Shown: positions 2,276 through 54,638 of the stretch, piece by piece | Numbering within the stretch: the stretch's first letter is position 1 | How the letters are laid out: each line of letters starts with the position of its first letter | Source: Gammaproteobacteria bacterium | GTDB taxonomy: Bacteria; Pseudomonadota; Gammaproteobacteria; Steroidobacterales; Foliamicaceae | Assembly: GCA_009844425.1 (NCBI GenBank) | Contig: VYBN01000033.1 | Location: forward strand, 146,263-210,262 | Direction: 5' to 3' | DNA length: 64,000 nucleotides | The notes under the pieces: model-generated | The model's database searches: none | What the model was told of the DNA's origin: nothing | The model's input: only the letters and a program-made list of their open reading frames with translations | Program-made: the position numbers and the translations under genes

Positions 2276-2299
2276 TGACCCTTCCCTTCCGGGAGACGC

Positions 2300-22947: not shown

Positions 22948-23609
22948 TCCGCCCCGATTGGCCGGCGCCCCGGCCGGTTCGCGCCGCCAGTACGCTGCGC
23001 GGCCTCGAGCCCCGCGAGGCATGGCGCTTGCTGGAGATCCCGGGCGAACCGCGCTGGCTCTCGCAGATGCACGGCCGGGACGTGGTTTGCGCCGACGCGG
23101 ACTGGACCGAAGTGCAGGCGGATGGCTGCGTGTCGTATACCCCTGGGCGCGCGTGCATGCTGCGCACGGCCGACTGCCTGCCGATCCTGTTTTGCGATGC
23201 CGCCGGAAGCCGCGTCGGAGCGGCCCACGCGGGCTGGCGCGGCCTGGCTTCGGGCGTGATCGAGGCGACCGTGGCCTCATTGTGCGGGGGCGGCTCCGGG
23301 GTGATCGACCCGCGGAACCTGATGGCCTGGATCGGTCCCGGCATCGGCGGTCCCGCGTACGAGGTCGGCGCTGACGTTTTTTGGGCCATTTCCACGAGTA
23401 CGCCCGATGCGGCGCAGTTCTTTACCCGAAGGGACAGCACCCACTGGCTCCTCGACCTGGCCGGCCTTGCGCGGCATCAGCTGCGCAGGCTCGGAATCAT
23501 GGACATCTACGGCGCCCACTGGTGCACGTTCTCGGACCCCGCCCGGTTCCATTCATATCGCCGCGATGGCAGCTCGGCCCGCCACGCCACATTCATCTGG
23601 CTGCTGTAG
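22935..23609 (+). CDS. pgeF: Peptidoglycan editing factor PgeF (YfiH / laccase-domain protein)
   Basis: The block DCLPILFCD...AAHAGWRG and the C-terminal SYRRDG. The GTG 22935 start overlaps the rluD stop. The conserved rluD-pgeF-clpB order supports the call. Confidence 0.8.
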
Positions 23610-23715
23610 CCGTCTCTTTGCTTCCTTCTTCTGGGAGTATTGGAGGCAGGGATGCCGGAACAAGCTCCATGGATGGATTTATGCGTCTCCCGGAAGAAGG
23701 AAGCAAAGAGACGGC
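23609..23715 (+). repeat. Nested-hairpin element, copy A (29-bp outer stem, inner GGGA-loop hairpin, GGATG...GCGT tract)
   Basis: Left arm GCCGTCTCTTTGCTTCCTTCTTCTGGGAG (23609-23637) pairs with right arm 23687-23715 through 28 Watson-Crick pairs and 1 G-T. The inner hairpin is GGCA-GGGA-TGCC (23645-23656). The core is shared with copies at 48154-48264 and 48302-48407. Confidence 0.8.
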
Positions 23716-23794: not shown

Positions 23795-26386
23795 ATGGAC
23801 CAATTCACCAATCGTGTGCGGGAAGCGCTGTCCGAGGCGCGCGCGGCCGCCGTGGATGCCGACCACCAGTTCCTCGAACCGCTGCACGTCCTTCGGGCGC
23901 TGCTGGAGCAGGACGGAGGCGCCGTGCTGCCGCTCCTGCGCCGCGCGGGGGCCGACACAGGAAAGCTGCAGGCCGATCTGGCCGAAGCGCATGAGCGCAT
24001 GCCCAGCGTCCAGGGGCAGGAGGGCGATCTGCACGCTTCGGCGGCGCTCGCACGGGTACTCAACCTGGCCGGCAAGCTGGCGCGCAAGCGCGGCGATACG
24101 CTGGTCAGCAGCGAGATCCTGCTGCTGGCCGCGGCCGGCGACAGGGGCGAGCACGCGCGGCTGATTAAGGACGCCGGCTTGGACCCGGCGCGACTGGAGG
24201 CGGCAATCGACCAGGTTCGCGGCGGAGAAACCGTCGACGAGGCGGGTGCGGAGGAACTGCGGGGCGCGCTGGAGAAATACGCGATCGACCTGACCCGCAG
24301 CGCCGAGGAAGGCAAGCTCGATCCCATCATCGGCCGCGACGAGGAGATTCGCCGCACGATGCACATCCTGCAACGGCGGACCAAGAACAACCCGGTGCTG
24401 ATCGGGGAACCGGGCGTCGGCAAGACCGCGGTGGTCGAAGGGCTGGCGCAGCGTATCGCCAACAGGGAGGTGCCCGAAGGGCTCAGGAACAAGCGCCTGC
24501 TGGCCCTGGATCTCGGCGCGATGATCGCGGGCGCCAAGTACCGCGGCGAGTTCGAGGAGCGGCTGAAGGCGGTTCTCAAGGAACTGGCGAAGCAGGAAGG
24601 CCGGATCATCCTGTTTATCGACGAGCTGCATACGCTGGTCGGCGCCGGCAAGGCCGAGGGCGCAATGGACGCCGGCAACATGCTCAAACCCGCCCTGGCG
24701 CGCGGCGAATTGCATTGCGTGGGCGCAACGACTCTTGACGAGTACCGCAAGAACCTGGAGAAGGACGGCGCGCTGGAGCGGCGCTTTCAGAAGGTGCTGA
24801 TCGAAGAACCCAGCGTGGAGGACACAATCGCCATCCTGCGCGGCCTGAAGGAGCGCTACGAAGTGCATCATGGCGTCACGATTTCGGACGCCGCCATAGT
24901 GGCCGCGTCCACTCTCTCCCAGCGTTACATCACCGATCGCAAGTTGCCGGACAAGGCCATCGACCTGATCGACGAGGCCGCGGCCCGCATACGCCTGCAG
25001 ATGGACTCCAAGCCGGAAGCCATCGACCGGCTGGAACGGCGGCTCATCCAGTTGAAGATCGAACGCGAGGCCCTGAGCAAGGACGAGGACGAGGGAGCGC
25101 GGCAGCGGCTGGCGGACCTCGATGTCGAGATTGCCGAGCGGGAAGGGCAACACGCCGAACTGTCGGAGACGTGGAAGACGGAAAAGGCCCGCACCCAGGA
25201 AGCCGCCGGACTCAAGGAGCAGCTGGAACAGGCCCGCCTGGCGCTGGAGAAGGCAGGCCGCGGGCAGGACCTGCAGCGCATGTCCGAGCTTCAGTACGGC
25301 GTCATCCCGGAGCTGGAACGCAAGCTTGAGGACGCGCAGGAAAACGAGCCGGAACACGCGGCCGACGCCATGCTCTCCAGCCGCGTCGGGGAAGCCGACA
25401 TCGCCGCCGTCGTGGCCCGCGCCACGGGCATTCCGGTATCCCGCATGCTGACTGGCGAGCGCGAGCGGCTCAACCGCATGGAGGATGAACTGCATCGCCG
25501 CCTGATCGGCCAGGACGAAGCGGTGCGTGCGGTGTCCCGGGCGATCCGCCGTTCCCGCGCCGGGCTCGCCGACCCGGACCGGCCTACCGGCTCGTTCCTG
25601 TTCCTGGGTCCCACGGGCGTGGGCAAGACCGAGTTGTGCAAGGCCCTGGCGGAGTTCCTGTTCGACAGCGAGGGCGCGATGGTGCGCATCGACATGTCGG
25701 AGTACATGGAGAAGCACGCCGTATCAAGGCTGGTCGGCGCGCCGCCCGGCTATATCGGCTACGACGAGGGCGGCCAGCTCACGGAGGCGGTGCGCCGCCG
25801 CCCGTATTCCGTCGTGCTTCTGGACGAACTCGAAAAGGCGCATCCGGACGCACTCAATATCCTGCTGCAATTACTGGACGAGGGCCGCCTGACCGACGGT
25901 CAGGGCCGAACGGTGGATTTCCGCAATACGGTCGTGATCATGACCTCCAATCTGGCATCGGACCAGATCCGTTCGCTGGCCGGGTCCGGGCACGAGGAGA
26001 TCAGGAAAGCCGTGATGGACTCGCTGCGTTCGCACTTTCGCCCGGAATTTCTCAACCGCATCGATGACATCGTCGTGTTCAGGCCGCTGTCACGCGAGGA
26101 GATTCGCGCGATCGTGGACCTGCAGCTCGATCGCCTCGCGGTTCGGCTGGCGGAGCAGGATATGGCGCTTGAGGTCAACGATGCCCTGAAGTTGCGCCTG
26201 TCCAATCTCGGTTACGACCCGGCTTACGGCGCCCGCCCGCTGAAACGGCTAATCTGCGACTACGTGGAGAACCCTCTGGCGGAATGGCTGCTGTCGGCGG
26301 ACGCCAGGCCGGGCGAGACGCTCGAAGTGGCCGACAAGGACGGGGAAACCGTCATTTCCGTGCGTGATCGCCCCAAAGCCGCGTAA
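23795..26386 (+). CDS. clpB: ATP-dependent chaperone / disaggregase ClpB
   Basis: Two AAA+ modules ([18 protein letters not shown]) with a coiled-coil middle domain. 863 aa. Confidence 0.97.
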
Positions 26387-41562: not shown

Positions 41563-42028
41563 ACGTTCCGGCCGCCGGGAGCAAGGCCGGCCCGCCCTCG
41601 ACGCGGCCCTGCGCCTGTTGGCCCGGCGCGAACATTCCCGGCGGGAATTGCGAGCCAAGCTTTCTTTGCGCGGCTACGAGACAAGTGAAATCGGCCGGAC
41701 GCTGGACCGCCTGGCCGGGCGCAATCTGATCAGCGACGAACGTTTCGCCGAGGCATTTCTGCGGTCTCGGCTGGAGCGCGGGCAGGGCCCCCTGAAGATA
41801 CGCGCGCAACTGAAGGAGCGGGGCGTGGATGCGCCGTTGGTCGACGCGGTAATGAACGAAGCGGAAGTCGATTGGGACCTGCGCGCGGCGGCCGCGCGCA
41901 GCCGCCGGTTCGGTGAACCGCCACCCGGGAATCGGGAGGACATGGCGCGCCAGGCGAGGTTCCTGCGCGGGCGCGGGTTTTCCGAGGGGCAGGTGGCGCG
42001 CGCCGTACTGAACGAAACCGTGCGATGA
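41555..42028 (+). CDS. recX: Recombination regulator RecX
   Basis: [19 protein letters not shown] and [12 protein letters not shown] repeats. It overlaps the recA stop. Confidence 0.85.
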
Positions 42029-44652
42029 AGACTGCCGAGATACGCACTTCCTTCGTGGAGTTCTTTACCGGGCGCGACCATCGGCATCTGCCCGGCTCGC
42101 CGCTGGTTCCGCGCAACGACCCCACGCTGCTGTTCACCAACGCCGGGATGGTGCAGTTCAAGGACATCTTCCTCGGCCGCGAGCAGCCACCGCACCCGCG
42201 GGCCGTGACCGTGCAGCGCTGCCTGAGGGCCGGGGGCAAGCACAACGACCTGGAAAATGTCGGTTACACCGCTCGCCACCACACTTTCTTCGAGATGCTG
42301 GGCAATTTCAGCTTCGGCGACTACTTCAAGCGGGAGGCCGTCCGTCTGGCCTGGGAATTCGTCACCAGGGACCTGGGGCTGCCGTCCGAGAAGCTTCTCG
42401 TAACCATCTACGAGGACGATGACGAGGCGGCCCGGTGCTGGCGGGAGGAGGCCGGAATCGGGGACTCGCGAATAATCCGGCTGGGCGGTTCCGGCAACTT
42501 CTGGTCGATGGGCGATACCGGCCCCTGCGGACCCTGCTCGGAAATCTTCTACGACCACGGACCGGACGTGTCCGGCGGTCCGCCGGGCAGCGCCGAGGAG
42601 GAAGGCGACCGCTTCGTCGAGATCTGGAACCTCGTGTTCATGCAATTCGACCGTGACGCCGAAGGCCATCTCACGGACCTCCCAAAGCCTTCCGTGGATA
42701 CCGGCATGGGGCTGGAGCGCACCGCCGCCGTGTTGCAGGGCGTCAGCAGCAACTACGAAATCGACCTGTTCCGCGACCTCATCGCCGCCGCCGGCGAAAT
42801 AACGGGCACAAGCGACCTTGGGTCCAACTCGCTCAAGGTCATCGCCGATCATGCGCGCGCCGCGGCCTTTCTCGTGGGTGACGGCGTTTTTCCGTCCAAC
42901 GAGGGGCGGGGCTACGTGCTGCGCCGCATCATTCGGCGCGCGCTGCGCCACGGCCACGATCTGGGCGTCAACGATGCCTTCCTCTATCGGATGGTGGCGC
43001 CCATTGAAGAGGCGATGGGCGCGGCCTTTCCGGAACTGGCGGAATCGCGCGAGCTGGCCGAGCGGGTGCTGCGTGCCGAGGAAGAACGGTTCGCAGCGAC
43101 CCTGGAGCAGGGCATGCGCTACCTGAACCGGACTCTGGAGGACGTGCGCGGCGGGGAGATACCGGGCGAAAAGGCCTTCGTCCTGTACGACACCTATGGT
43201 TTCCCCGTGGACCTCACCGCCGATATTGCGCGCGGCCGCGGCCTTTCCGTGGACATGCCCGGTTACGATGCCGCGATGGCCAGACAGCGCGAGCGATCCC
43301 GCAGCTCTTCCGGCATGGGCGCGCGGCAAACCAATTCGCCCGGGGGCGAGGGCGTCCCGTCCCCGGTTTTTCCCGCGAGCGAGTTTACGGGGTATGAGCG
43401 TCTGGAGAATCCGGCGCGCGTAATCGGAATCCGCATCGGCGACGAGGCGGTGGAGCGGGCGGAAAAGGGCAAAACCGCCGAAATAGTGCTGGACCGCACG
43501 CCGTTCTATGCCGAAAGCGGCGGCCAGGTGGGCGACACGGGAATGCTGGCCGGGCAGGGACTGCGCTTCGACGTCCGGGACACGCAGCTGACATCGGCAG
43601 GACGTGCGCACATCGGCGTGCTTGCCGAGGGGACCCTGAGCGTGGGCGACGAGGTGACCGCCACGGTGGACGCCGTGCGCCGCCGGGACATCGTTCTGAA
43701 CCATTCGGCCACGCACCTGATGAACGCGGCGCTGCGCAGGGTGCTGGGAAAGCACGTGGCGCAGAAGGGCTCCCTGGTGGCGCCGGACCGTCTGCGTTTC
43801 GATTTTTCGCATTTCGAAGCGGTGTCGCCGGAAGACCTGGAGCGCATCGAGGACGAAGTCAACGGGCAGATTCGCGCCAACGAGCCCGCCGTGACCACCG
43901 AGATGCCGATCGACGAGGCGATCGAGGCCGGCGCCTTGTCGATGGCCGGCGAGGACTATGCCGAGAAGGTCCGGGTGCTGAAGCTCGGCGATTACTCCAT
44001 GGAACTGTGCGGCGGCACGCATGTGGGCCGCACCGGCGACATCGGACTGTTCGCCATCGTGTCGGAGTCCTCCGTCGCCGCCGGTGTGCGCCGCATCGAG
44101 GCGCTCACGGGTGCGGGGGCCTTCGAGTGGGTGCGTAAGCTGCGTCACCGAATGGGCCGCCTCGCGGGCCTGCTCAAGGGTGGCGCCGACGATTCGGAAG
44201 AAAAACTCTCGGCCCTCATGAAGCGCGCCAGGGACCTGGAAAAGAAGCTGGCGCAGGCGCGGGCGAAACTTGCCGAGGGCGGTGGCGCGGCGGCCATGCC
44301 GGTCACCCGGGTGGGGGACGTGAACCTGATTGCCATGCGCCTCGACGACGATTCGGACATGAACACGATGTGCAACGCGGTGGACCGCTACCGGGACCGG
44401 TTTTCGCCGGCGGTGGTGGTGCTGGGTACGCGCGACGGCAACGGCAAGGCACGCATCGTGGCCGGCGTGAGCAAGGCGCTGGAGAAGCGGGCGCCTGCCC
44501 GCGACCTGGCGCGCGCCGTGGCCAAGCGCCTGGGCGGTAAGGGCGGTGGCCGGGCCGGCTTCGCGCAGGGCGGGGGGCCGCGGGGAGAAGCGCTGGGCGA
44601 GGCGCTTGACGCGCTTTCCGGCTGGCTGCAGGAGCGTCTGGGCGACAACTAG
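42025..44652 (+). CDS. alaS: Alanine--tRNA ligase
   Basis: FTNAGMVQFKD, HHTFFEMLGNFSFGDYFK, the editing-domain HSATHL...CGGTHV block, and a C-terminal DHHA1-like domain. Confidence 0.95.
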   Translation: MKTAEIRTSFVEFFTGRDHRHLPGSPLVPRNDPTLLFTNAGMVQFKDIFLGREQPPHPRAVTVQRCLRAGGKHNDLENVGYTARHHTFFEMLGNFSFGDYFKREAVRLAWEFVTRDLGLPSEKLLVTIYEDDDEAARCWREEAGIGDSRIIRLGGSGNFWSMGDTGPCGPCSEIFYDHGPDVSGGPPGSAEEEGDRFVEIWNLVFMQFDRDAEGHLTDLPKPSVDTGMGLERTAAVLQGVSSNYEIDLFRDLIAAAGEITGTSDLGSNSLKVIADHARAAAFLVGDGVFPSNEGRGYVLRRIIRRALRHGHDLGVNDAFLYRMVAPIEEAMGAAFPELAESRELAERVLRAEEERFAATLEQGMRYLNRTLEDVRGGEIPGEKAFVLYDTYGFPVDLTADIARGRGLSVDMPGYDAAMARQRERSRSSSGMGARQTNSPGGEGVPSPVFPASEFTGYERLENPARVIGIRIGDEAVERAEKGKTAEIVLDRTPFYAESGGQVGDTGMLAGQGLRFDVRDTQLTSAGRAHIGVLAEGTLSVGDEVTATVDAVRRRDIVLNHSATHLMNAALRRVLGKHVAQKGSLVAPDRLRFDFSHFEAVSPEDLERIEDEVNGQIRANEPAVTTEMPIDEAIEAGALSMAGEDYAEKVRVLKLGDYSMELCGGTHVGRTGDIGLFAIVSESSVAAGVRRIEALTGAGAFEWVRKLRHRMGRLAGLLKGGADDSEEKLSALMKRARDLEKKLAQARAKLAEGGGAAAMPVTRVGDVNLIAMRLDDDSDMNTMCNAVDRYRDRFSPAVVVLGTRDGNGKARIVAGVSKALEKRAPARDLARAVAKRLGGKGGGRAGFAQGGGPRGEALGEALDALSGWLQERLGDN

Positions 44653-44691: not shown

Positions 44692-45540
44692 ATGCCGCTC
44701 AACACAAACATCAAAATCATGTACCTGAATCCGGCGGGCTATTCCTCCGACAATCAAATGTTTGCGGACATGGCCAAAACGTACAAGTACCCTGGAACCG
44801 CGGTGGACATCGTTTCTTTTAACCCCGCGACGGTCCCGCCGAAGATGACCGACCTGGAATTCCGATCATACGAAGCGCTGATAATTGCCGACACGGTCAA
44901 AGCGGCCAGACAAGCGGCCAAGGATGGTTATGACGCGATGGTGATTGGGTGCTTCTACGATCCTGCGTTGCTGGACGCAAGAGAAATCTCGGGCGATACA
45001 GTCATAGTGGGGCCGTGTCAGGCATCGATCAGTCAGGCGCTGACCATTGCCAACAACTTTTCGATCATCATCGGAGAGGACAAATGGTTCGATCAGATGA
45101 GGGATACGGTCTATCAATATGGCTACAGAGACAAGCTGGCATCGTTTGAGTCGGTTGGGCTTCGCGTGGAGGACTTTCAAACCAACCCGGAGCGAACGGC
45201 CTCTCTGATGAAGAGCGCTGGCTGGAGAGCATACGTAGAGCGCCATGCGGAGTCGATCATCCTGGGTTGCACGATGGAGATAGGCTTCTACAGCGAACTC
45301 CAGCAGTTCTTGACCGAAGAAGCCGGCGGCAGGAACGTCCCGGTCATAGATTGCTCCATAGCCTCGCTTAAAGCGGCTGAGGACGCTGCGCTGCGAAGCC
45401 AAATTGGCTGGACCAACAGCCGGGCCTGGGGCATGGAGCCGCCATCAGAGGAAGAACTTGCGAAGTTCGAAATCTTTCAGGACGACTACCAATTTGGAAA
45501 CATAATCCACGTTCCGGCAGACGGAACGGATTGCACTTAG
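44692..45540 (+). CDS. Asp/Glu/hydantoin racemase family protein (HyuE-like)
   Basis: Two catalytic-Cys blocks in family-typical contexts (MVIGCFYDPAL and IILGCTMEIG). A strong SD (AAGGAGG) lies 7-8 nt upstream of the ATG. Confidence 0.7.
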   Translation: MPLNTNIKIMYLNPAGYSSDNQMFADMAKTYKYPGTAVDIVSFNPATVPPKMTDLEFRSYEALIIADTVKAARQAAKDGYDAMVIGCFYDPALLDAREISGDTVIVGPCQASISQALTIANNFSIIIGEDKWFDQMRDTVYQYGYRDKLASFESVGLRVEDFQTNPERTASLMKSAGWRAYVERHAESIILGCTMEIGFYSELQQFLTEEAGGRNVPVIDCSIASLKAAEDAALRSQIGWTNSRAWGMEPPSEEELAKFEIFQDDYQFGNIIHVPADGTDCT

Positions 45541-45552
45541 CAGTCGCAAAGT

Positions 45553-46842
45553 TCAGTTTCCGGCTTGAGGGCCAAAAGCGCCGGAAGAGGATTCACACTC
45601 ATACCCGGCAGGCCCCGGCCCGAAATCGGGCGACTTCGCGTAGAGCAGCATGTTTCCCTGCGAGTAATTTTCCTGGTCGTCGATGTTGTATTCGTAACTC
45701 ACATAAAACAGGTCCAGGAACGTCGAACCGACGAGCAGCCCTCCGATTTGTTCCAGAATACGGAAGGCAACCACCCATTGTCCGGCACGATCACCCACTT
45801 CCACTTGATATGAATACTGCACCGGCGAAAGTGTGACAACCGCTGCACTGCCGGCCACGTTTCCGCAATCCGTTCCAAGTCGAATGGCAATGCCGGGAAG
45901 ATTCTCGTAATCGCCGGGAGATCCGGAAACATAGGCGAGGCCTACCCATTCGCCGTCCTGTAGGATTTCTTCGAAAATCGCGTTTCCTGAAGAGTCCTTG
46001 TACTTCATCAATGTGCTCAGAATCGGAAGAACGTACTTGCTGTCGCCCTTGAAGCGCGAGGAACCGGTGTCAAGAAAGAAGATCGCGCCGCTGAGAGGAT
46101 CAATCACCATATCCCCCACAGCAAGGCTATCCAATTCGGTTCCCCAAACGTCATCGGTTCCGGGCGCGGGTTTCGGCGTCAAGGTCGTTACGGTGTTTGC
46201 GGAGATGTACGCTTCGTTTACGCCGCCCAGAATGAAGTTGCCTGATTTCGCGCCGGGATTCGTAACCTGGGAAAACACGGCCTCGGAGATATAGCCCGCC
46301 TGCATCAGAGCTTTCGGAAAAAACGCGCTTGGAACCGTAGTCCTGTCGCTGCGGGCGGGTAGCCCGATGCCGCCGTCCCATGCCAGATACTGAAACTGGC
46401 TCCCCTGATAATCGACAGACGCAAAGAACGCGAGCGACGGCAATGACCCTGCCGGCGCGCCGAACTGGACGGAGCCTGTCCATGTGGTCATATCGCCCCA
46501 CGGACCAAATGACCGTGTCGTAGGCGTTTTGTCCAGCCACTGAAAACCGGCCTGGGAAGTATCGACCTTTGCATGCGCATTGCAGGCCGGGGTGGTGCAC
46601 TCGTCCGAAGTGGCCCAGATGAAATCGGCCCCATTGTCCAGTGCGAGCTTCAACTGGCTGGAGCTGATCTGGATATCTTCCGTGTACCAGGGAGACGCCC
46701 CGTAATCCGCGATGGGACCAAGCTTCAGATTCATCTCCACGGTTTGTTGCGCCTGGCTCGCGCTCGCAAGCAACAGCGAAGCGGCAATCCAGGGTAAGCG
46801 CGAAAGACAAGATGCAGTGCTGGCCCCGGCGTTGATTTTCAT
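45553..46842 (-). CDS. Secreted pepsin-like (MEROPS A1-type) aspartic peptidase homologue, with first active-site triplet DNG and second DTG
   Basis: LDNGADFIWATSDECTTPACNAH aligns with pepsin FDTGSSNLWVPSxxCxxxACxxH. Further matches are ILGGVNEAYI (pepsin GGxDxxxY), FFLDTGSSRF (second DTGS) and LLVGSTFLDLFYVSYEY (pepsin ILGDVFIRxYYTVFD). The signal peptide ends ...ASASQA-QQ. Confidence 0.65.
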   Translation of the reverse strand: MKINAGASTASCLSRLPWIAASLLLASASQAQQTVEMNLKLGPIADYGASPWYTEDIQISSSQLKLALDNGADFIWATSDECTTPACNAHAKVDTSQAGFQWLDKTPTTRSFGPWGDMTTWTGSVQFGAPAGSLPSLAFFASVDYQGSQFQYLAWDGGIGLPARSDRTTVPSAFFPKALMQAGYISEAVFSQVTNPGAKSGNFILGGVNEAYISANTVTTLTPKPAPGTDDVWGTELDSLAVGDMVIDPLSGAIFFLDTGSSRFKGDSKYVLPILSTLMKYKDSSGNAIFEEILQDGEWVGLAYVSGSPGDYENLPGIAIRLGTDCGNVAGSAAVVTLSPVQYSYQVEVGDRAGQWVVAFRILEQIGGLLVGSTFLDLFYVSYEYNIDDQENYSQGNMLLYAKSPDFGPGPAGYECESSSGAFGPQAGN

Positions 46843-48128
46843 GTGTTTCTTCTTTTGGTTTCAGAATGCGAACCGAACCTTGACGATCCGAATTGCAGCG
46901 CGGCGTAGAGCCCGAACGCGGCGATCAGACCATCGAGCGCCGGAACGGCTGACAGGGTAATGTACTGTTTGCTGGCAATAAAGGAAATCGCCGACCCACC
47001 GAGCCAGGCGAGAATCGCCGAGTAGCCGATTCTCGGCCGGGCCGGCAGATCGCGAAGCTTATAGCGCCGCCGGTTCACAATGAAGTAATCGGCGATATAG
47101 ACACCGGCAATGGGCGTTGCCGCGATACCGATGAAGAGCACGAAGGGAAGGAAAAAGTCCATGATGCCCATCACCGCGGCGCCCGTGCCGAGAACGCTTG
47201 CGCCCAGGGCAAGGCGCTGATCGGATACTTTGCCGAACGACGCGGCCAGCGTGAGCACTGCCGAATAGAGATTGACCGTGTTGGTGGTCCAGGTCGAGAA
47301 CACCAGGATAAACAGCGCCGGAATCGCGATGCCGAGTCCGATCATGATTCGCATGATGTCGGTTTCGCCGAGAGCCAGCGTGGGAATGGCCGAGGCCAGC
47401 ATGATCAGCGGATAGCCCAACGCCAGCCCGGAAACCGATTTAACGCCTTCCCATCCGGTGCGCGCGTACCGGGTCAGATCCGGCCCCGAAACGGCCATCA
47501 GGATATTCGTGCCGATCACCGTGGAAACCGCCATCCCGAACGAAATTCCGCCGGTTCCGGCAGCAGCCAGGATGGTCTGGAAATCGGTTTGCCTCACCAC
47601 GAGGTAAACCACGTAGCACATGAATAGGGCCAAGGCCGGAACCGTCCATCGGGAGAACTTCTCGATCAATCTGAATCCGTACATCGCCGTCAGCGTCATG
47701 GCTGCGCAGCCCGCGGCGGCGCAAAGCGGCCGCGGAACATCCAGCGCGTAGAACGCCAGCAGCGCCTCGCGGATCGCTTTGCCGAATATGTCGCCGGTGG
47801 CCGCGAAATAGCCCACATAGGTAACGGCAAGCAGGGCGTTGACGCAACGCACGCCTGCAGTGCCGAAGGCAAACTGAATCAACATGTAGGTGGACAGCCG
47901 GGTTCGGGCGCCGATGACGGAGGTTACGATCATCAACGCCGCCACCAGGGCGCAGCCGCCTGCCATGGCCAGCGCGGCGGCCCGGAAACCAAGCCCGGCG
48001 GCCAGTTCGGAACCAACGAAGAAAACCGGCAGGGTAACGCCGATTCCGAACACCACCACCGCGATGCGGAAACCACCGACGGTCGCACTGTCGGGAACGC
48101 GGCTGCGCGAATAGTCGTCCTTTATCAA
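46839..48128 (-). CDS. NCS1-family (cytosine/purine/allantoin/hydantoin-type) permease
   Basis: About 12 TM segments and a CodB-like N-terminus (VPDSATVGGFRIAVVVFGIGVTLPVF). TTG start. Its stop overlaps the ATG of the protease homologue (ATGA). Confidence 0.75.
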   Translation of the reverse strand: MIKDDYSRSRVPDSATVGGFRIAVVVFGIGVTLPVFFVGSELAAGLGFRAAALAMAGGCALVAALMIVTSVIGARTRLSTYMLIQFAFGTAGVRCVNALLAVTYVGYFAATGDIFGKAIREALLAFYALDVPRPLCAAAGCAAMTLTAMYGFRLIEKFSRWTVPALALFMCYVVYLVVRQTDFQTILAAAGTGGISFGMAVSTVIGTNILMAVSGPDLTRYARTGWEGVKSVSGLALGYPLIMLASAIPTLALGETDIMRIMIGLGIAIPALFILVFSTWTTNTVNLYSAVLTLAASFGKVSDQRLALGASVLGTGAAVMGIMDFFLPFVLFIGIAATPIAGVYIADYFIVNRRRYKLRDLPARPRIGYSAILAWLGGSAISFIASKQYITLSAVPALDGLIAAFGLYAALQFGSSRFGSHSETKRRNT

Positions 48129-48153
48129 GCCGCCTCTCTCTCGCTAGCCCTTC

Positions 48154-48264
48154 GGTTTCCTGTGTATGCCCTCATCCCGGAAACGCCGGCAAGCACATCC
48201 TTGTGGGCTCTGTGGAGGCGTCCTGCCTCCACAAGTTCCGGGATGAGGGCATACACAGGAAACC
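48154..48264 (-). repeat. Nested-hairpin element, copy B (orientation defined by the GGA-motif strand, here minus)
   Basis: Perfect 29-bp stem: GGTTTCCTGTGTATGCCCTCATCCCGGAA (48154-48182) pairs with 48236-48264. Inner hairpin TGTGGAGGC-GTCCT-GCCTCCACA lies at 48211-48233. The reverse complement of the interior aligns with copies A and C (TGGAGGCAGG..GAGCCC..GGATG..GCGT). Confidence 0.8.
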
Positions 48265-48301
48265 TTTAGCTGGCGCAATTCCCAGCATCGCGCAAGCTAA
48301 A

Positions 48302-48407
48302 GCCCAGTGCTTATCCCTGCCTCGTGGGAGCGTCGGCGGCAGGAGCCGCCGCCGAGCCCCATGGATGGGTTCATGCGTCTCTCACGAGGCAGGGATAAGC
48401 ACTGGGC
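48302..48407 (+). repeat. Nested-hairpin element, copy C
   Basis: The 29-bp stem GCCCAGTGCTTATCCCTGCCTCGTGGGAG (48302-48330) pairs with 48379-48407 through 28 Watson-Crick pairs and 1 G-T. Inner hairpin CGGCGGC-AGGA-GCCGCCG lies at 48334-48351. The tract GAGCCCCATGGATGGGTTCATGCGT follows. Confidence 0.8.
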
Positions 48408-48434
48408 GAGGAAGCAGGCTTGCGGAGAAGCGGG

Positions 48435-50615
48435 CTAGAGCATATAGCGGGCGCGAATGCCAACCTGCCTGGGCTGATTCGGAAACCGGATAAGCGGGTT
48501 GTAGAAGAACACCGTTTCCGCGGCATCTTCATCCGTGAGGTTGCTGGCATATAGCGAAATCGTCCAGTCATCGCTGTACAGCCCGATGCTGGCATCGGCG
48601 AAAAAGCGCGAATCGGATTCGCCGGTCAGATCATTGAAGATATCGAACGACCGAGGGCCCATGGCATTCCCGGAAAGCCGCGCGCGCAGCCATCTGCCAT
48701 TGGCCAGAGGCTGGTTGAAGTCCACGCTGGCCGTGAAGTTGTAGTCGGACACATACGGCATCGTGTTGCCCACCGTTTGGGCCAGATCAAGCCCGGTGTA
48801 CGGGTCGATGCCGCTATTTTTCGTTATTTCGTTATCGATCACGCCAAAGCCGAATCGAAAATCAACGGCATCAGTGGCGCGCAGGACAAGCTCGGCTTCA
48901 AATCCGCTGATTTCCACTTCCTGCACATTCAGGTTTTCCAGCGTGAAGGTAGTGGAGTTGAACCGCGTGAACTGGGCATTGTCCTGGGTAATGTAAAAGG
49001 CCGCCCCGTTCAATGTCAGGCGATCATCCAGCCACGAGGTCTTCACGCCCGCTTCAAAGGTGTCGGACACTTCCTTCCCGTAGAAGCGCGTGACAGTGGG
49101 GGCATATTCGTTGAATCCGCCGGACCGGAATCCGCGCGACCAGGTAAACGAGGCCAGCGCGTTGTCCGCAAACGACCATGCGGCGGACACTTTCGGCTGC
49201 AGTTCGCTGAACGTGTCCTCCACCCTCGAGTCTTCCGTGAAACGAACCCGCTCATCGATCGCCTTGCGCTCCTCCTCGTCGTAACGCAGCGCCAGCGTCA
49301 ACTCCAGAGCATCCGACAGGTCATAGTTGACCTGCCCGAAAAACGCGAACGCGGAAGTGTCCTGGTTGGTTCGTTCACCGTCCGTGGGAAACACGCTAAC
49401 CCACAAATCCGCCGGATCGTGGTCGTTACTGTTAACGAGCAGGGGCTTGGCGTCGGCCAGGGTCACGCGGGCGGTGCCCGGATCGTCAAAGATCTGATCG
49501 AATTGAACGATCCGGTCGCGGGTCTCGAAAAACGCGCCGGCAAGCCAGCGCAGCTGTGCATCGTCGGGCGAACTGATCCGCGCTTCCAGGTTGAGGGAAT
49601 CCTCTTCGATCAGGTTGATCTGGGTGCTCGGGAAGAAGAAATTGGCGTCCACGGCCGGCAGGCTGGTGAAATCCGCATCCGAGAACTGGTCGTCGCGCGA
49701 GTGGTTCAGTCCGGCTATGGCTGTCAGCAGGCCGCCTCCCGGCAGCTCCCGGTCGTATTTCGCCGATACCGTCCAGATCTCCTGTTCGTCGATTCCAACC
49801 GCGTTCTGAGTTGGCCCGATGGAAAAGTCATTCAACTGGCCGAGGGTGATGAAGGACATGTAGTTCGTTCCCTGGGTGGTGTCCCGATAGCGGCCGTGCA
49901 GCGCAATGCTCGATGCCTCGTCGATGTCTACCGCGAGGAGGCCCCGCACGCCAGCGGCGCCATCGACATAGTCCACCTTCTCATCAAGGAAGCCGTTGGT
50001 GATCAGGCCATCGAAATCCCGGTAGTCGGCGGAAAGGCGAAAGCGAACCGAGTTGCCCGCAAGCGGTCCTCCAATGGAAGCCGCAATGCGCCGGTCGTTG
50101 CCTTCCCCGAGGGACAGATCGACATAGCCTTCCAATTCCTCGCCGGGCTGCTTCGTTATGATGTTGATGGCGCCGCCGATGGCGTTTTTGCCGTAGAGCG
50201 CGCCCTGCGGGCCGCGCAGCACCTCGATGCGCTCAATCTGGTCCAGGTCCTGGTTGATGAATTCGAGATTGGGCACGGTCACGCCATCAACCACGAAGGC
50301 GATCGGCGCTTCGCCCACCTGCGGAGTGATCAGCCCGCGGATAGTTACAAAACTCAGTCCCTGCCGGAAGTTGGTCGAAACGTGTAGATTAGGCACCAGC
50401 ACCGAAAAGTCCTTGATGTTGCTGATTCGCGCAACCTCGACAAGGTCGGAGTCAATTACAGTAACTGACTCGGGAATTTCCTGAAGGCTTTCCGAGCGTT
50501 TGCGCGCTGTCACTACTATCTCTTCGAGAGTCTGCTGAGCCAGCGCGGGCTCCAGGATCAATGCCAAGGCAATTCCTGCTGCAGCCAGCTTCAAGACTTT
50601 GCTGATCCGCTTCAT
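48435..50615 (-). CDS. TonB-dependent outer-membrane receptor
   Basis: Signal peptide, plug-domain blocks (EEIVVTARKR, IERIEVLRGPQGALYGKNAIGGAINI) and a long beta-barrel with aromatic-rich strands. Confidence 0.9.
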   Translation of the reverse strand: MKRISKVLKLAAAGIALALILEPALAQQTLEEIVVTARKRSESLQEIPESVTVIDSDLVEVARISNIKDFSVLVPNLHVSTNFRQGLSFVTIRGLITPQVGEAPIAFVVDGVTVPNLEFINQDLDQIERIEVLRGPQGALYGKNAIGGAINIITKQPGEELEGYVDLSLGEGNDRRIAASIGGPLAGNSVRFRLSADYRDFDGLITNGFLDEKVDYVDGAAGVRGLLAVDIDEASSIALHGRYRDTTQGTNYMSFITLGQLNDFSIGPTQNAVGIDEQEIWTVSAKYDRELPGGGLLTAIAGLNHSRDDQFSDADFTSLPAVDANFFFPSTQINLIEEDSLNLEARISSPDDAQLRWLAGAFFETRDRIVQFDQIFDDPGTARVTLADAKPLLVNSNDHDPADLWVSVFPTDGERTNQDTSAFAFFGQVNYDLSDALELTLALRYDEEERKAIDERVRFTEDSRVEDTFSELQPKVSAAWSFADNALASFTWSRGFRSGGFNEYAPTVTRFYGKEVSDTFEAGVKTSWLDDRLTLNGAAFYITQDNAQFTRFNSTTFTLENLNVQEVEISGFEAELVLRATDAVDFRFGFGVIDNEITKNSGIDPYTGLDLAQTVGNTMPYVSDYNFTASVDFNQPLANGRWLRARLSGNAMGPRSFDIFNDLTGESDSRFFADASIGLYSDDWTISLYASNLTDEDAAETVFFYNPLIRFPNQPRQVGIRARYML

Positions 50616-50720
50616 AGCTTTTCTCCGGTATTCCTTTTGAGCGCCAATGTGGAATGCTCTTCAGAATTCCGCATTGATCAATTCATGATAACAGGGCCTG
50701 CAACTGGACTGGCGCGCCTG

Positions 50721-52394
50721 CTACGGCCCGCGGTAGTTGAAATCGCGCCATGCCTGGGCGGGAGCGATATAGCCGTTGCGCAGGTCGTCGGCCAGGGCTT
50801 CAGCGGGCCGCTGCCTCGGGCTGCCCCAGCCGGCGCCGGTGGCCGTGTACAGCCGAACGCGGTCGCCGTGCTTGAGCGCGACCCGGCTTGCCATGGTGAG
50901 CGGCTCTGATTCCGCGCCGCCGGATATGACCACAGCGAAATTGACCGAGCCCGGCATCCCTCCGGCAATGCCGGCGGGCGGCGTTTTGCCGCGGCCGAAG
51001 AATGTAGAAAGCTCGACGCCCTCGTCCCTGATTTCGTATTCCAGCACAGCGCCAAGACCACCGCGGCATTCGCCTGCGCCTGCGCCGGCATCGTGCAACG
51101 CGTATTCGTTTACGCGCACGCCGTAGCGGGCTTCCTGAATCTCCACGGGAATATTCGAGGTCTCGCCGTTGCCCACGCAGAACTGGGCGTTTTCGCCATC
51201 CTTGTCGGCGCCGGCGCCCCAGCCGCCCACCAGCGGCTGCACGAGAATATAGGGATCGCCTCCGCTCGACCGGTTTCCGGACAGCACCATGGAACACACC
51301 GAACCGAACTGGCCCGCCGTCAAACGGCCCGGCATGGCTGGCGCCAGCGCCCGCCGCATTACGTCCGCCGCCGCAACCATGGCTTCGAAATATGAAGAAG
51401 TGGGAGCGGGCCGCGTGGCCGTTAGCACTGAATTCTCGGGACAAAGCACGGACAGTGCGCGGAAGCAGCCGTCATTCGCCGAGATGCCGGCACCCACGAT
51501 GCCCATGAAAACTTCCCGGGCGGCTGATATCAAAGCGGGGCGGGTGCAGTTGATCGGCCCGGGCGCCGCTCCGGCGGTTCCGCTGAAATCGGCCACGAAT
51601 CGCGATTCGTCGATGCGGATTTCCACAGCCACATCGAAAGGGCCGTTGCCCAGCCCGTCGCTGTCAATGCAGTCCCGTGCTGTGAATCGGCCCTTGGGCA
51701 GGCGGTCGAAAGCTTCCTGCACCATCTGTTCGCCGTGGTCGAGCAGCGCGTCTGCTGCCCGCAGGGTTGTTTCGCAGCCGTATTTTTCCAGGAGCGCTGC
51801 CAGCCTCCGCTCGCCAACCCGAAGCGCCGCGATTCCCGACCAGAGATCGCCGAGCGTCATGTCGGGCAACCGCACATTGGCGCGCAGCACGTCCGTCAGG
51901 CCCGTGTTGACCGTGTCCCGGTCGCAGAGTTTGATCACCGGAAACTGAAGCCCTTCCTGGAACACATCGGTGGTGGTGGTGCTGAAGCTGCCCGGATTGG
52001 CGCCGCCCAGCTCGGTCCAGTGCGCCTTGTTCGCCACCCAGGCAACCAGGCGCTTGTCGAAAAACACCGGCTTGAGCAGGGTCACATCGGACAGGTGGGT
52101 CCCCCCTCCGCCATAAGGATCGTTGGTCATGAAAATATCGCCGGCATGAACATCGGCGGCGCCGAACTTGTCGAGAACGTCGCGCACGGCGCCGTCCAGG
52201 GCCCCTACGAAGCCCGGTATGCCCATGCCCTGGGTGATCAGCCGCCCTTCGGCATCGGTGATGCCAATGCCGAAATCCAGGGTCTCGTAGATGACGGGAC
52301 TCATGCTGGCGCGCTTTTGCGCTGCAAACATCTCCTGGCCGATGGTGGCCAGCGCGCCCTTGATGATCTCGCGAGTGAAGATGTCCTGGTCCAT
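50721..52394 (-). CDS. Hydantoinase B / oxoprolinase family protein (HyuB-like)
   Basis: HyuB-type N-terminus DIFTREIIKGALATIGQEMF...SPVIYETLDFGIGITD. The start is taken at ATG 52394, 19 nt after the hyuA-like stop. Confidence 0.85.
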   Translation of the reverse strand: MDQDIFTREIIKGALATIGQEMFAAQKRASMSPVIYETLDFGIGITDAEGRLITQGMGIPGFVGALDGAVRDVLDKFGAADVHAGDIFMTNDPYGGGGTHLSDVTLLKPVFFDKRLVAWVANKAHWTELGGANPGSFSTTTTDVFQEGLQFPVIKLCDRDTVNTGLTDVLRANVRLPDMTLGDLWSGIAALRVGERRLAALLEKYGCETTLRAADALLDHGEQMVQEAFDRLPKGRFTARDCIDSDGLGNGPFDVAVEIRIDESRFVADFSGTAGAAPGPINCTRPALISAAREVFMGIVGAGISANDGCFRALSVLCPENSVLTATRPAPTSSYFEAMVAAADVMRRALAPAMPGRLTAGQFGSVCSMVLSGNRSSGGDPYILVQPLVGGWGAGADKDGENAQFCVGNGETSNIPVEIQEARYGVRVNEYALHDAGAGAGECRGGLGAVLEYEIRDEGVELSTFFGRGKTPPAGIAGGMPGSVNFAVVISGGAESEPLTMASRVALKHGDRVRLYTATGAGWGSPRQRPAEALADDLRNGYIAPAQAWRDFNYRGP

Positions 52395-52413
52395 ATTCCT
52401 GCTTTCGCCGCTG

Positions 52414-54471
52414 TCAGGCTGAGCGCAAGCGCAGATGAAGGCCGCCCCAGGCGTCAACCGATGCGGAAGCGCCCGGCGGCGCCAGAATCACCGAATCAGG
52501 CTCCTCAATAACCGCCGGCCCATGGATTTCCGCACCGGCGCCAAGCGCAGACCTCTCGAATACCGTGGCCTGCAATTCGCCATGCCCGTCGAAATGCACA
52601 GGCCGGCTTCCGGTTGCGGCGATTGAAGCATTGCCGGCCCCGGCGGCATCCTGGGGCTCCGCACTGGCGCTCGGCCCCCGGCTGATGGCGGCCAGATGAA
52701 AATTAACCACCTCGGCCGGACTCTCAAGCCGGAAGGAAAACTCCCGCTCGTGAACGGAGTGGAACCTGTCCAGCAACCGCTCCATGTCGTCCGCCGCAGG
52801 ATCGAATGGCACCTCCACGCTGTGCTCCTGTCCGCGATACCGGACATCCAGGAAGCGGAGGCAGGCAATCTCGCCCGACATGGCCGCGTTGCCTGAGAAC
52901 TCCCGCCGGATGTCACGCTCCATATTGGCGAAAGTATCAACGATCCACGGCAGGCAATCGGCGTTGAGGCGGCGCATGGAAGTCACAATGCGGTCCTGGC
53001 GCGGGTCCAGCGCCAGCATGGCCCAGGCCGAGAACACGGAGCAGTGCGGAGGGATCACCACTTTGCCGATTTCCAGTTCCCCGGCGAGCGACGCGGCATG
53101 CAGGCCTGCGCCGCCGCCGAACGCGATCAGCGTGAAGTCCCTTGGGTCGTGGCCGCGATTCACCGACACCAGTTTCAGGGCGTTCACCATATTGGCGTTG
53201 GCCATGCGAACGGTGCCCAGCGCCACATCAAGCACGTCCACGCCAAGAGGCTCGGCCAGGGTGGAAAACGCCCCGGCCACGGCGGTCAGATCGGGAGGGC
53301 CGTCGCCGCCTGCCAGCTTGCGCGGCTCGATGCGGCCCAGCAACAGGTGCGCGTCCGTGGTGGTGGGCTGCCGTCCGCCGCGCCCGTAAGCCACCGGCCC
53401 GGGTTCCGCGCCGGCGCTTTGCGGGCCCACATGCAGGCTGCCGGCCGGGTCCAGCCATGCGATGCTGCCGCCGCCATTGCCGATCTCCACGATATCTACT
53501 ACAGGAGTGCTGATCGGGTAACCGGCGGTGGCCGGAGTTTTCTCGATGTGGTATTCCCTGGCGATGGTGGCTTCGCCATTGCGAATCAGGGAGCACTTGG
53601 CGGTTGTTCCGCCAATGTCCAGGGTGATGAGATTGCGTTCGCCGATTTTCCGGCCATAGGCCGCCGCGCCCAGCACGCCTGCGGCCGGCCCGGATTCGAC
53701 CAGACTTATGGGGTTGGCGGCCGCGGCTTCCACTGCCGCCAGCCCGCCGTTCGATTGCATGATGAGCATATCGGACTTGAGCCCGGCGGCCGAGAGGTCG
53801 CTCTGCAGCCCGTTCAGGTATGCGCGCACGGCGGGAAGGACGTATGCGGACAGAACCGTGGTGTTGGTGCGTTCGTACTCGCGCCATTGCCGGCACACCT
53901 GATGGGATGCGATCACCTCGATATCCGGCAAGGCGCCGGCGATGATTTCATGCGCTTGCCGCTCGTGTGCCGGGTTCGCATAGGCGTGCAGAAAGCAAAC
54001 CGCAATTGCGCCGACGCCGTCCTGCGCAAGCTGGCGGGCAGTTGAAAGCAGCTCGTCCTGGTTGAGCGGAACCATCACCTGGCCGCGGTGATCGATACGC
54101 TCGGCAACTTCCCGGCGCAGGTAACGGGGCACGAAAGGCGGCGGCTTGCGGTAATAGGCGTTGAAAATGTCCGGCGTGTTGCCCCTGGCGATCTCAAGCA
54201 CGTCCCTGAAGCCGCGGGTTGTGATCAAACCCGTCGTGACGCCTTTGCGCTCGGTCAGGTTATTGATGACCACTGTGGAACCATGGGCAAAAAAATCAAT
54301 GCCCGTTAATTCAACGCCCCCTGCGGCGAGCGCGCTGGCGACGCCTTTCTCGAATTGCCCCGGTGTGCTGCGGCGCTTGATGGAAGTGGCGCGTCCATTT
54401 TCGATATGGAACACATCCGTGAATGTCCCTCCCACATCCGTTGCGATCCGCCCGCCGCCGCCTGCATTCAT
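52414..54471 (-). CDS. Hydantoinase A / oxoprolinase family protein (HyuA-like, ATP-dependent)
   Basis: RIATDVGGTFTDVF and LDIGGTTAKCSLI (ASKHA-type phosphate loops). About 685 aa. Confidence 0.85.
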   Translation of the reverse strand: MNAGGGGRIATDVGGTFTDVFHIENGRATSIKRRSTPGQFEKGVASALAAGGVELTGIDFFAHGSTVVINNLTERKGVTTGLITTRGFRDVLEIARGNTPDIFNAYYRKPPPFVPRYLRREVAERIDHRGQVMVPLNQDELLSTARQLAQDGVGAIAVCFLHAYANPAHERQAHEIIAGALPDIEVIASHQVCRQWREYERTNTTVLSAYVLPAVRAYLNGLQSDLSAAGLKSDMLIMQSNGGLAAVEAAAANPISLVESGPAAGVLGAAAYGRKIGERNLITLDIGGTTAKCSLIRNGEATIAREYHIEKTPATAGYPISTPVVDIVEIGNGGGSIAWLDPAGSLHVGPQSAGAEPGPVAYGRGGRQPTTTDAHLLLGRIEPRKLAGGDGPPDLTAVAGAFSTLAEPLGVDVLDVALGTVRMANANMVNALKLVSVNRGHDPRDFTLIAFGGGAGLHAASLAGELEIGKVVIPPHCSVFSAWAMLALDPRQDRIVTSMRRLNADCLPWIVDTFANMERDIRREFSGNAAMSGEIACLRFLDVRYRGQEHSVEVPFDPAADDMERLLDRFHSVHEREFSFRLESPAEVVNFHLAAISRGPSASAEPQDAAGAGNASIAATGSRPVHFDGHGELQATVFERSALGAGAEIHGPAVIEEPDSVILAPPGASASVDAWGGLHLRLRSA

Positions 54472-54638
54472 TAGATACACCCATCGAGCGTTTCCGCTGC
54501 ATTGTACCTACTACCCTTCACTGAGTGCTTGTCTCCGCACTGCGCGAGGGAACCAGACAGTGTGCACAGTGTAATGAGGCTGCTCGGGAGTAGTAGGCGG
54601 CACTAAAATGGGCGCATTGCGGACGGGAGGCCGACCCT

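Follow-up and report, generated by a model that had tools for sequence, protein, structure and literature searches.

Results

Two hairpin repeats between a receptor gene and a permease gene

The DNA analysed here, called the window in the following, is a stretch of 64,000 nucleotides from a gammaproteobacterial genome (GCA_009844425.1, contig VYBN01000033.1, positions 146,263 to 210,262). On its minus strand a gene for a TonB-dependent receptor is followed by a gene for a permease, and the gap of 306 nt between the two open reading frames (ORFs) holds two long hairpins, copies B and C, of one repeat family; a third member, copy A, is found elsewhere in the window (Table 1). B reads in the sense direction of the receptor–permease operon and C in the antisense direction. 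The family is real: its helices covary, only one of its strands is the folding strand, copies are gained and lost between close relatives and stand in either orientation, and the insertion sequence (IS) ISXa1 has the repeat inside both of its ends. We think it probable that B and C, which belong to two subfamilies, were inserted independently and represent a mobile repeat that is structured and non-autonomous and whose folded strand is recognised during propagation.

The anatomy of the two hairpins agrees in all points with a first-pass annotation of the window, which had described the gap, both stems, their separation by 37 nt, the 25 nt between the end of B and the TTG start of the permease at 48128 and the one G–T pair in the stem of C. 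Homologues of the permease have the same start position, M-(x)-N/K-D-D/Y-Y-S. The spacer between B and C forms an imperfect inverted repeat of its own (16 nt). The stem of A starts on the last base of an ORF at 22539–23609, the G of its TAG stop codon (23607–23609), and A lies 79 nt upstream of a further ORF at 23795–26386.

The structure of B and C is far beyond chance. A, B and C are the only long-stemmed (29-bp) inverted repeats with separated arms in the 64-kb window, they fold on either strand with −62 to −87 kcal/mol (z = −10 to −14.6 compared to dinucleotide shuffles), and the core pattern occurs three times where 0.00 occurrences are expected. A consensus and pattern scan revealed neither a terminator nor a sigma-70-type promoter at A, B or C and no U-run at B or C, in line with the annotation, which had noted the absence of a U-run after either hairpin; the feature of an intrinsic terminator, a G+C-rich stem followed by a U-run, is thus lacking. 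The 29-nt arms, regarded as possible guides or targets, have no further match anywhere in the window.

Architecture of the unit and strand-specific fold

When A and C were aligned with B in reverse complement, the arms proved unrelated and the centre common. Within the outer stem the centre consists of a joiner of 3–4 nt (CGU/CUUG), a first small hairpin (P1), a 2-nt linker, a second small hairpin (P2), 2–4 nt and a conserved GCGU. P1 is a 7-bp stem of variable sequence ending GGC/GCC with the loop AGG(G)A(Y), and P2 reads GAG-(C/CC)-CCCA/CACA-[U/A]GGA-UGGG/UGUG-UUC/CUU. This core of ~50 nt is a three-way junction, and the loops of both small hairpins read C[A-N-GGA-Y]G. The unit comprises the hairpin of ~110 nt (106–111 nt in the window) and a short conserved leader and tail, ~140 nt in total. 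The leader motif GCGC(C/A)AGCTAAAG is found in the window beside B and C only and recurs next to copies in other metagenome-assembled genomes (MAGs) from sponges, and therefore is part of the unit. Many copies of the family have TAA or TAG right at the 5′ foot of the stem (CTAAA-G and GTA-G, the hyphen marking the foot) and a purine-rich GAGG/GGAA tail at the 3′ foot, which may reflect a target preference or belong to the unit. An ATG in the P2 loop could start a small peptide; we rejected this candidate as its frame would cross the non-conserved arm.

For the structural alignment 50 distinct copies were registered by hand over 67 columns, with N-padding to hold the MAFFT register. Standard pairs fill 92% of the alignment cells compared to 36–45% when the partners are slid by 1–3 columns. 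Both partners have changed in 13 of the 20 pairs (170 cells), none of 500 shuffles reached the observed covariation score, and compensated variation is seen in all three helices. A G·U pair in P2 is kept in 40 of the 50 copies, and the mismatches of the outer stem, read on the sense strand, are more often of the G·T type than of the A·C type (31 against 11, binomial p = 0.003). We therefore conclude that only one of the two is the folding strand.

The lengths of the outer stem peak sharply at 29 bp; most copies have 28–32 bp, and a few lineages have a proximal stem of 6 bp or stems of 44–49 bp. In two variant copies (L025 7845–7904 from Stenotrophomonas maltophilia and L026 4725–4805; L numbers denote the collected 8-kb loci) P1 is replaced, in the former by the palindrome GCAGGCGCC-AU-GGCGCCUAC without a GGA loop and in the latter by a longer insert, and P2 and the GCGU bulge are retained. 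P2 is therefore the more constrained half of the core. Altogether the sequence of the outer stem is free to change while its pairing persists, and the apical junction, the GGA loops and the GCGU are under sequence constraint.

Distribution of the family

An exact-pattern scan of 185,579 species genomes yielded at least 117 stretches. The full core together with a flanking long stem accounts for at least 56 pattern matches in ~50 stretches, all of them from Gammaproteobacteria; among the matches listed, the remaining stretches lie within genes of other phyla and match by chance. The hosts include Halieaceae, Spongiibacteraceae, Cellvibrionaceae, SAR86, Pseudoteredinibacter, Saccharospirillum, Natronospirillum, Stutzerimonas kirkiae and Alteromonas confluentis, and furthermore Rheinheimera, Aeromonadaceae, Methylomicrobium, Stenotrophomonas, a Lamellibrachia symbiont and several sponge-symbiont MAGs. 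Complete chromosomes with copies of the family are OZ243929.1, CBDATM010000001.1 and OY762064.1, and among the cultivable carriers are, besides S. kirkiae and A. confluentis, Pseudoteredinibacter isoporae and Saccharospirillum salsuginis.

The annotation had proposed to search with a covariance model. We built such a model (R1) from 11 equal-length copies from other taxa, leaving out the sequences of the window, and it recovered exactly C, B and A in the window (scores in Table 1), the next best match reaching 14 bits. Across the collected loci R1 detects at least 77 copies in 52 loci, ~20 of them missed by the pattern. In these ~20 copies, which were not chosen by the pattern, the loops are again A-N-GGA-Y closed by C-G (AGGGAU, AUGGAC, AAGGAU, AGGGAC).

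Copies occur alone, in head-to-head pairs, in tandem arrays and inside an IS. Adjacent copies are either in tandem or head-to-head (minus, then plus), the latter in nine loci including the B/C pair of the window (the others being L020, L025, L026, L039, L058, L072, L089 and L116); tail-to-tail pairs are absent among the R1 loci. Two loci carry decayed units. L071 has tandem half-units at 1452–1797 (minus), four of them with 5′ arm and core at a period of ~96 nt and the 3′ arm on the last only, and L089 (1511–1926) has three half-units of core and 3′ arm plus an opposed fourth copy. The loops of these decayed units drift from AUGGAU to ACGGAC and retain the GGA. In a Rheinheimera MAG (L125) a copy at 1812–1907 (plus) lies ~55 nt from the 3′ end of the convergent RNase P RNA gene at 1962–2321 (minus; RF00010, 321.7 bits).

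The window stems from a sponge-associated organism. Its permease protein is found unchanged on 19 contigs of sponge metagenome assemblies, and several of these contigs end within the B/C region. Seven independent assemblies (L004–L010) begin 55–309 nt upstream of the identical permease, in or beside B/C. The repeats break metagenome assemblies.

Carriage by viruses was not observed (no matches in IMG/VR and none in phage records), and the core is without a match in 5,426 Escherichia coli genomes at the "distant" sensitivity of blastn, a check of the core and not a comparison with the ERIC consensus. No Rfam family was reached at gathering or at lenient E-values; the lenient matches are generic long-hairpin microRNA precursors and weak antisense matches of 23–26 bits to Ysr224 (gathering 70 bits). 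The latter, to a Yersinia small RNA, are located at L044 2914–3040, L095 4614–4714 and L125 1831–1925 and could stem from hairpin formation in general, or Ysr224 could itself be a hairpin derived from a repeat. Our collection of the literature, which is incomplete, contains no description of the element, and an earlier description elsewhere is possible. Decaying copies of a known mobile repeat, as the annotation had considered, are thus matched in one respect: the repeat is mobile, but the copies are intact and neither the catalogue nor the papers searched gave a match.

Insertion polymorphism and genomic context

The MAG CAR4_bin_12 (L087) has an orthologous receptor–permease junction with coding flanks that are ~95% identical to those of the window. 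There C is present and B is absent, the difference being a clean indel of 138 nt (Table 1). Four further loci (L128, L130, L131 and L132, with permeases 78–92% identical) have the same receptor–permease synteny and gaps of 108–146 nt between the called genes, in which R1 found no element even with filters off. A fifth locus (L133, permease 80% identical) has a different upstream gene and no element either. The most parsimonious history is therefore that an empty site first received C and later B. Together with the at least 77 copies in many genomes these losses and gains bear out the suggestion, made in the annotation, of a structured DNA element spreading between intergenic sites.

The comparison of C with its orthologue in L087 shows how the stem evolves. 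Six changed positions are fully compensated and two are not (a G·U pair in the window and an A·C in L087), and the cores differ by one joiner base, a 2-nt indel in a loop and one further base. The trinucleotide CTA was tried as a target duplication and is unsupported by the empty site in L087.

Relative to host genes the copies are oriented at random. Between co-directional genes 9 copies are in sense and 20 in antisense, a further 15 are between convergent and 7 between divergent genes, and with respect to the upstream gene 29 are in sense and 30 in antisense. The covariance-model scores are equal in sense and antisense contexts (Mann–Whitney p = 0.87), and we therefore rejected the possibility that sense copies are better conserved. 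Because orientation is random, the strand-specific fold is not explained by a service in host mRNAs.

Modules inside ISXa1 and other mobile elements

When plasmids were searched by blastn with the consensus core, a match was obtained on pDCA of Ancylobacter novellus and Xanthobacter flavus. On this plasmid (NZ_KU922118.1; L135 1048–2621) a transposase gene of the ISAs1 family (PF13808 and PF01609) is placed between two complete modules, the first on the minus and the second on the plus strand (43.0 and 42.8 bits). On either side the module is set 24 nt inward from a perfect terminal repeat of 17 bp, TCAGGGCAATCGCACTA. The transposase (P0121) is assigned by NCBI to the ISXa1 family, and an identical protein is found in Marinobacterium ramblicola. 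The same layout is seen in L136 (~166–1777) and L216 (~721–2268), whose transposases are 84% and 88% identical. All three ISs are ~1.57 kb long and have one module ~24 nt inside each terminal inverted repeat (IR) CAGGGCAATCGCACTA; those of L136 are flanked by a 10-bp direct repeat GAAATATTAC, which we read as a target duplication. At the better end the modules score 43–63 bits with the family model, and in two of the three copies the module at the downstream end is degenerate (18–20 bits).

More distant relatives are without the module. Compact ISs of ~1.2 kb with 62–66% identity (L219–L222) have the related IR CAGGGCAAACGCA and no module, a relative with 72% identity (L217, L218) has no module and, as far as our script could find, no terminal repeat, and of 80 metagenome relatives 79, at ≤50% identity, are without the module. 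A general association with ISAs1-family transposases is thereby rejected, and since the four relatives at 62–72% lack the module, the ISXa1 lineage acquired it and is not its source. No homologue of the ISXa1 transposase is encoded in the window or in L001–L134 (117 loci of the pattern scan and 17 permease loci).

Two other elements with terminal repeats contain the module. A non-coding element of 480 bp in Stutzerimonas kirkiae (L054 4748–5228) has ISXa1-like terminal repeats of 19 bp (CAGGGCAATCGTGCTA) and a single module, in addition to a second, subterminal inverted repeat of 18 bp and an unrelated 21-bp hairpin; it looks like a miniature inverted-repeat transposable element (MITE) derived from ISXa1. 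The MAG OZ243929.1 has at least three copies of a repeat of ~420 bp (L029, L109 ~1610–2050 and L126 ~4915–5350) with a 19-bp terminal inverted repeat (TIR), AACCCGCATATTGCACCAA / TTGGTGCAATATGCGGGTT. Here 15 nt separate the left TIR from the module, whose 5′ side faces the TIR, the opposite of the geometry in ISXa1. Because the module is found in ISXa1, in another TIR repeat and alone, it behaves as a unit which can be nested within various mobile elements or stand by itself. By eye the arms of the module are suggestive of the terminal IR of ISXa1 (CAGGGGCAAGCAC compared to CAGGGCAATCGCAC); a derivation from it was rejected as the similarity is not significant.

Neighbouring genes

The region at 44692–54480 encodes hydantoinase A and B, the TonB-dependent receptor, the permease (of the cytosine/allantoin type), an aspartyl protease and a divergent Asp/Glu/hydantoin racemase, and looks like a locus for the utilisation of hydantoin or cyclic amides. 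It is adjoined by alaS (42025–44652). The protease ORF (45553–46842, minus strand, 429 amino acids) overlaps the permease stop by 4 nt and is of the eukaryotic type (PF00026, E = 9.5e-18), a eukaryotic-like protein in a sponge-associated bacterium that is conserved in L001, L128 and L130.

Table 1. Features of the receptor–permease gap and of copy A (window coordinates)
Feature	Position	Strand	Description
TonB-dependent receptor gene	48435–50615	minus	Plug and beta-barrel domains; context, upstream of the gap
C hairpin unit	48302–48407	plus	29-bp stem with one G·U and 48-nt core; A/C subfamily; arms 48302–48330 / 48379–48407 (29 nt, 97% complementary, 48 nt between), single mismatch G·T on the plus strand
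R1 match to C	48325–48384	plus	57.5 bits
C core	48331–48378	plus	J1 CGU 48331–33; P1 48334–40 / 48345–51, loop AGGA 48341–44; P2: GAG 48354–56, CCCA 48358–61, loop UGGA 48362–65, UGGG 48366–69, UUC 48370–72; conserved GCGU 48375–78
B–C spacer	48265–48301		37 nt, two abutting 5′ leaders: GCGCCAGCTAAAG (minus), GCGCAAGCTAAAG (plus)
B inserted unit (approximate)	48143–48280	minus	138-nt indel compared to L087, ends uncertain by a few nt; on the minus strand leader GAATTGCGCCAGCTAAA, hairpin, tail GAAGGGCTAGC
B hairpin unit	48154–48264	minus	29-bp perfect outer stem and 53-nt core; type-B subfamily, P2 = CACA-AGGA-UGUG; arms 48154–48182 / 48236–48264 (29 nt, 100% complementary, 53 nt between)
R1 match to B	48177–48241	minus	49.5 bits
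B core	48183–48235	minus	from sequence, structural alignment and pair counts; plus-strand coordinates: J1 CUUG 48235–48232; P1 48231–48225 / 48219–48213, loop AGGAC 48224–48220; P2: GAG 48210–48208, CACA 48205–48202, loop AGGA 48201–48198, UGUG 48197–48194, CUU 48193–48191; GCGU 48186–48183
Permease gene	46839–48128	minus	cytosine/purine-type, PF02133; downstream of B, context only
Copy A	23609–23715	plus	third member in the window; R1 44.6 bits

Discussion

The strand-specific fold of the repeat is most likely kept by the propagation of the element itself, because its orientation relative to host transcription is random; that it is maintained for the benefit of the neighbouring genes is less likely. 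We envisage that the folded single strand, either DNA or RNA, would be recognised by a probably dimeric protein which reads the two similar loops, and that the sequence of the stem would be neutral while its pairing would be required. The transcript of the receptor and permease genes would then carry B in sense and C in antisense, both as 29-bp helices and hence possible substrates of RNase III, and B would present two CsrA-type loops 55–80 nt upstream of the Shine–Dalgarno sequence of the permease. Any effects on the operon would be side effects of the insertions. The hairpins are recent passengers and not an ancestral control region of the operon.

Several observations weigh against a mobile repeat of this kind. 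No transposase or other enzyme could be tied to the solo copies. An ISXa1-type terminal IR (with up to 3 mismatches) is absent near the copies of the window and among L001–L134 stands beside a module in L054 only, and the resemblance of the arms to this IR is matched by 20 of 300 shuffles. A target-site duplication at B is unreadable, the flanks of the filled and the empty site being too diverged. Transposition of single strands as in IS200/IS605 would predict a bias towards one replication strand, and by GC skew the copies show no significant bias (28 against 41). The core has been kept in several gammaproteobacterial orders, which is unusual for a purely selfish element, and a function as RNA at the level of the host would also fit. 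Moreover, the gene calls at the loci are crude, being based on ORF length and the G+C content at third codon positions. As the copies in the structural alignment were placed by hand so as to fit the proposed fold, and some columns were preset by the search pattern, the pair counts lean towards this structure; the slid controls and the independent covariance model partly offset this.

Among the alternatives a CsrA/Rsm module deserves most attention, even though we regard it as unlikely. In this case the core would be a bipartite high-affinity site for a CsrA dimer, and sense copies would regulate the adjacent gene, as B would the permease, or all copies together would titrate CsrA as a sponge. 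The anatomy of the loops fits well: a GGA in a hairpin loop closed by C-G is present in both loops of nearly all of the at least 77 copies, those outside the search pattern included. The two GGA motifs are ~21 nt apart, which is reportedly (Mercante and colleagues, 2009) within the range that a CsrA dimer can bridge. CsrA is near-universal in the Gammaproteobacteria, and the family is limited to this class if one leaves aside the ISXa1 copies carried by two plasmids of Alphaproteobacteria and by contigs of unknown host from metagenomes or MAGs. There is also a weak match to RsmW (17.7 bits, gathering 52). P1 of copy A reads CAGGGAUG, and P2 of copy B, ACAAGGAUGU, is the exact ACARGGAUGU core of the CsrA consensus RUACARGGAUGU, obtained by in vitro selection (SELEX), with the GGA in the hairpin loop as in the consensus (PMC4347634). 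The orientation of the copies speaks against this explanation, as about half of them would be transcribed as antisense with UCC loops, and C is antisense to its own operon. Furthermore no own promoter or terminator was found at the elements, no GGA overlaps the Shine–Dalgarno sequence of the permease, related operons do without the elements, and in L025 and L026 P1 is replaced by a hairpin without GGA. None of the Csr/Rsm models of Rfam (clan CL00106) was reached, the best, RsmW, staying below gathering, and a regex search of the window did not reveal a csrA gene. Of the CsrA/Rsm-type site put forward in the first-pass annotation the loop anatomy is therefore supported, and the proposed control of the permease is not.

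A combination of mobility and RNA binding is about as doubtful. The repeat would be a transposable interface between RNA and protein, a mobile bipartite site for CsrA or another dimeric RNA-binding protein on a helix that RNase III can cleave. Through its spread, post-transcriptional control would be rewired or the regulator titrated genome-wide, and ISXa1 would have recruited it to link its own expression or immunity to this regulator.

We consider it still less probable that the hairpins are maintained as processing or stability elements, whose 29-bp helices would uncouple the receptor and permease mRNAs through RNase III or stabilise 3′ ends. Bacterial RNase III cuts helices of ~20 bp or more, and the Correia elements of Neisseria, which are processed by RNase III, offer a parallel. 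The helices of B and C are perfect or near-perfect over 29 bp (−84 to −87 kcal/mol on either strand; z = −11 to −14.6 compared to shuffles), and a stem length of 28–32 bp is conserved across taxa while the sequence is not. However, this explanation leaves the conserved strand-specific core unaccounted for, the operon lacks the elements in five related loci, and the elements occur in all intergenic contexts, convergent and divergent ones included. Cleavage of B and C by RNase III is plausible and would be a side effect of their insertion.

Equally improbable is a classical MITE of ISXa1, that is, solo modules which arose as deletion derivatives and are moved in trans by the DDE transposase of the ISAs1 family: the modules in both ends of three ISXa1-clade copies, the element in L054, the minus–plus geometry that B/C share with two IS ends and the 100%-identical transposase in Marinobacterium would fit, but nearly all solo copies lack the IR, the arms are not significantly IR-like, transposase homologues are missing from the window and L001–L134, the IS acquired the module, B was inserted alone beside a pre-existing C, and the OZ243929.1 repeat has the opposite geometry.

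We therefore prefer to regard B and C as independent insertions of a mobile repeat recognised through its folded strand. For annotation the family is of relevance since it fragments assemblies of sponge symbionts and marine Gammaproteobacteria and yet was not found in Rfam or in the literature searched. The module is built inside out, in that its structured centre is conserved and its 29-bp arms freely co-evolve. This differs from classical MITEs and repetitive extragenic palindromic (REP) sequences and points to recognition of a folded single strand. The six compensated stem pairs between orthologues with ~95% identical flanks also make the family a natural system for studying compensatory evolution. 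Should CsrA bind to the GGA loops, transposition would here, as in few other cases, spread a site for a global RNA regulator, and the module in both ends of ISXa1 would tie the biology of this IS to the regulator.

Comparison with known systems

Like REPs, bacterial interspersed mosaic elements (BIMEs) and REPINs, the palindromic repeats of Gammaproteobacteria that are associated with RAYTs, the module is intergenic, present in multiple copies, hairpin-forming and found in both orientations, in inverted doublets and in clusters, and it has one folding strand with imperfections of the G·T type. REPs are, however, only 20–40 nt long, start with a conserved 5′ tetranucleotide of the GTAG type, have arms which are near-identical within a genome and fall into genus-specific classes. 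The module, in contrast, is ~110 nt long (units of 106–111 nt), its 5′ flanks are CTAAA or GTA without a fixed GTAG, its arms differ between copies, those of A, B and C being unrelated, and its apical core is conserved across orders.

The module also resembles the MITE-like ERIC/IRU, Correia (CREE/NEMIS), RUP and BOX elements, which are likewise dispersed intergenic imperfect palindromes of 100–150 nt, are co-transcribed, form RNA hairpins that RNases can cut and show presence/absence polymorphism. Insertion polymorphism between related genomes, a feature of MITEs in general, is likewise seen for the module. In the families named, the terminal inverted repeats are conserved and the centres variable or mosaic, and TA duplications accompany the Correia elements, whereas the module has variable ends and a conserved centre, and no duplication was seen. 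An attC site of integrons would have the stem bases RYYYAAC ... GTTRRRY; here they are GCC...GGC, the orientations are mixed and cassette arrays are absent.

The short hairpins with A-N-GGA-Y loops are shared with the CsrB, RsmY and RsmZ RNAs, and two such loops side by side with TwoAYGGAY (RF01731), which is probably an RNA of gamma-Proteobacteria that is not cis-regulatory (PMC2864571). The RF01731 model was not reached even at E ≤ 10. The module differs from these RNAs in having neither a promoter nor a terminator of its own, in sitting at the tip of a 29-bp helix and in behaving as mobile DNA.

The B/C pair also resembles ISXa1, which has the same module just inside each terminal inverted repeat in the same minus-to-plus orientation; B/C, on the other hand, enclose no transposase gene, are without the terminal repeats of ISXa1 and are separated by the 37-nt spacer only. 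To sum up, the module is a bacterial interspersed palindromic mobile repeat, set apart from the known ones by a conserved junction with two GGA loops, a 29-bp stem whose arms co-evolve, and the fact that ISXa1 has recruited it into both of its ends.

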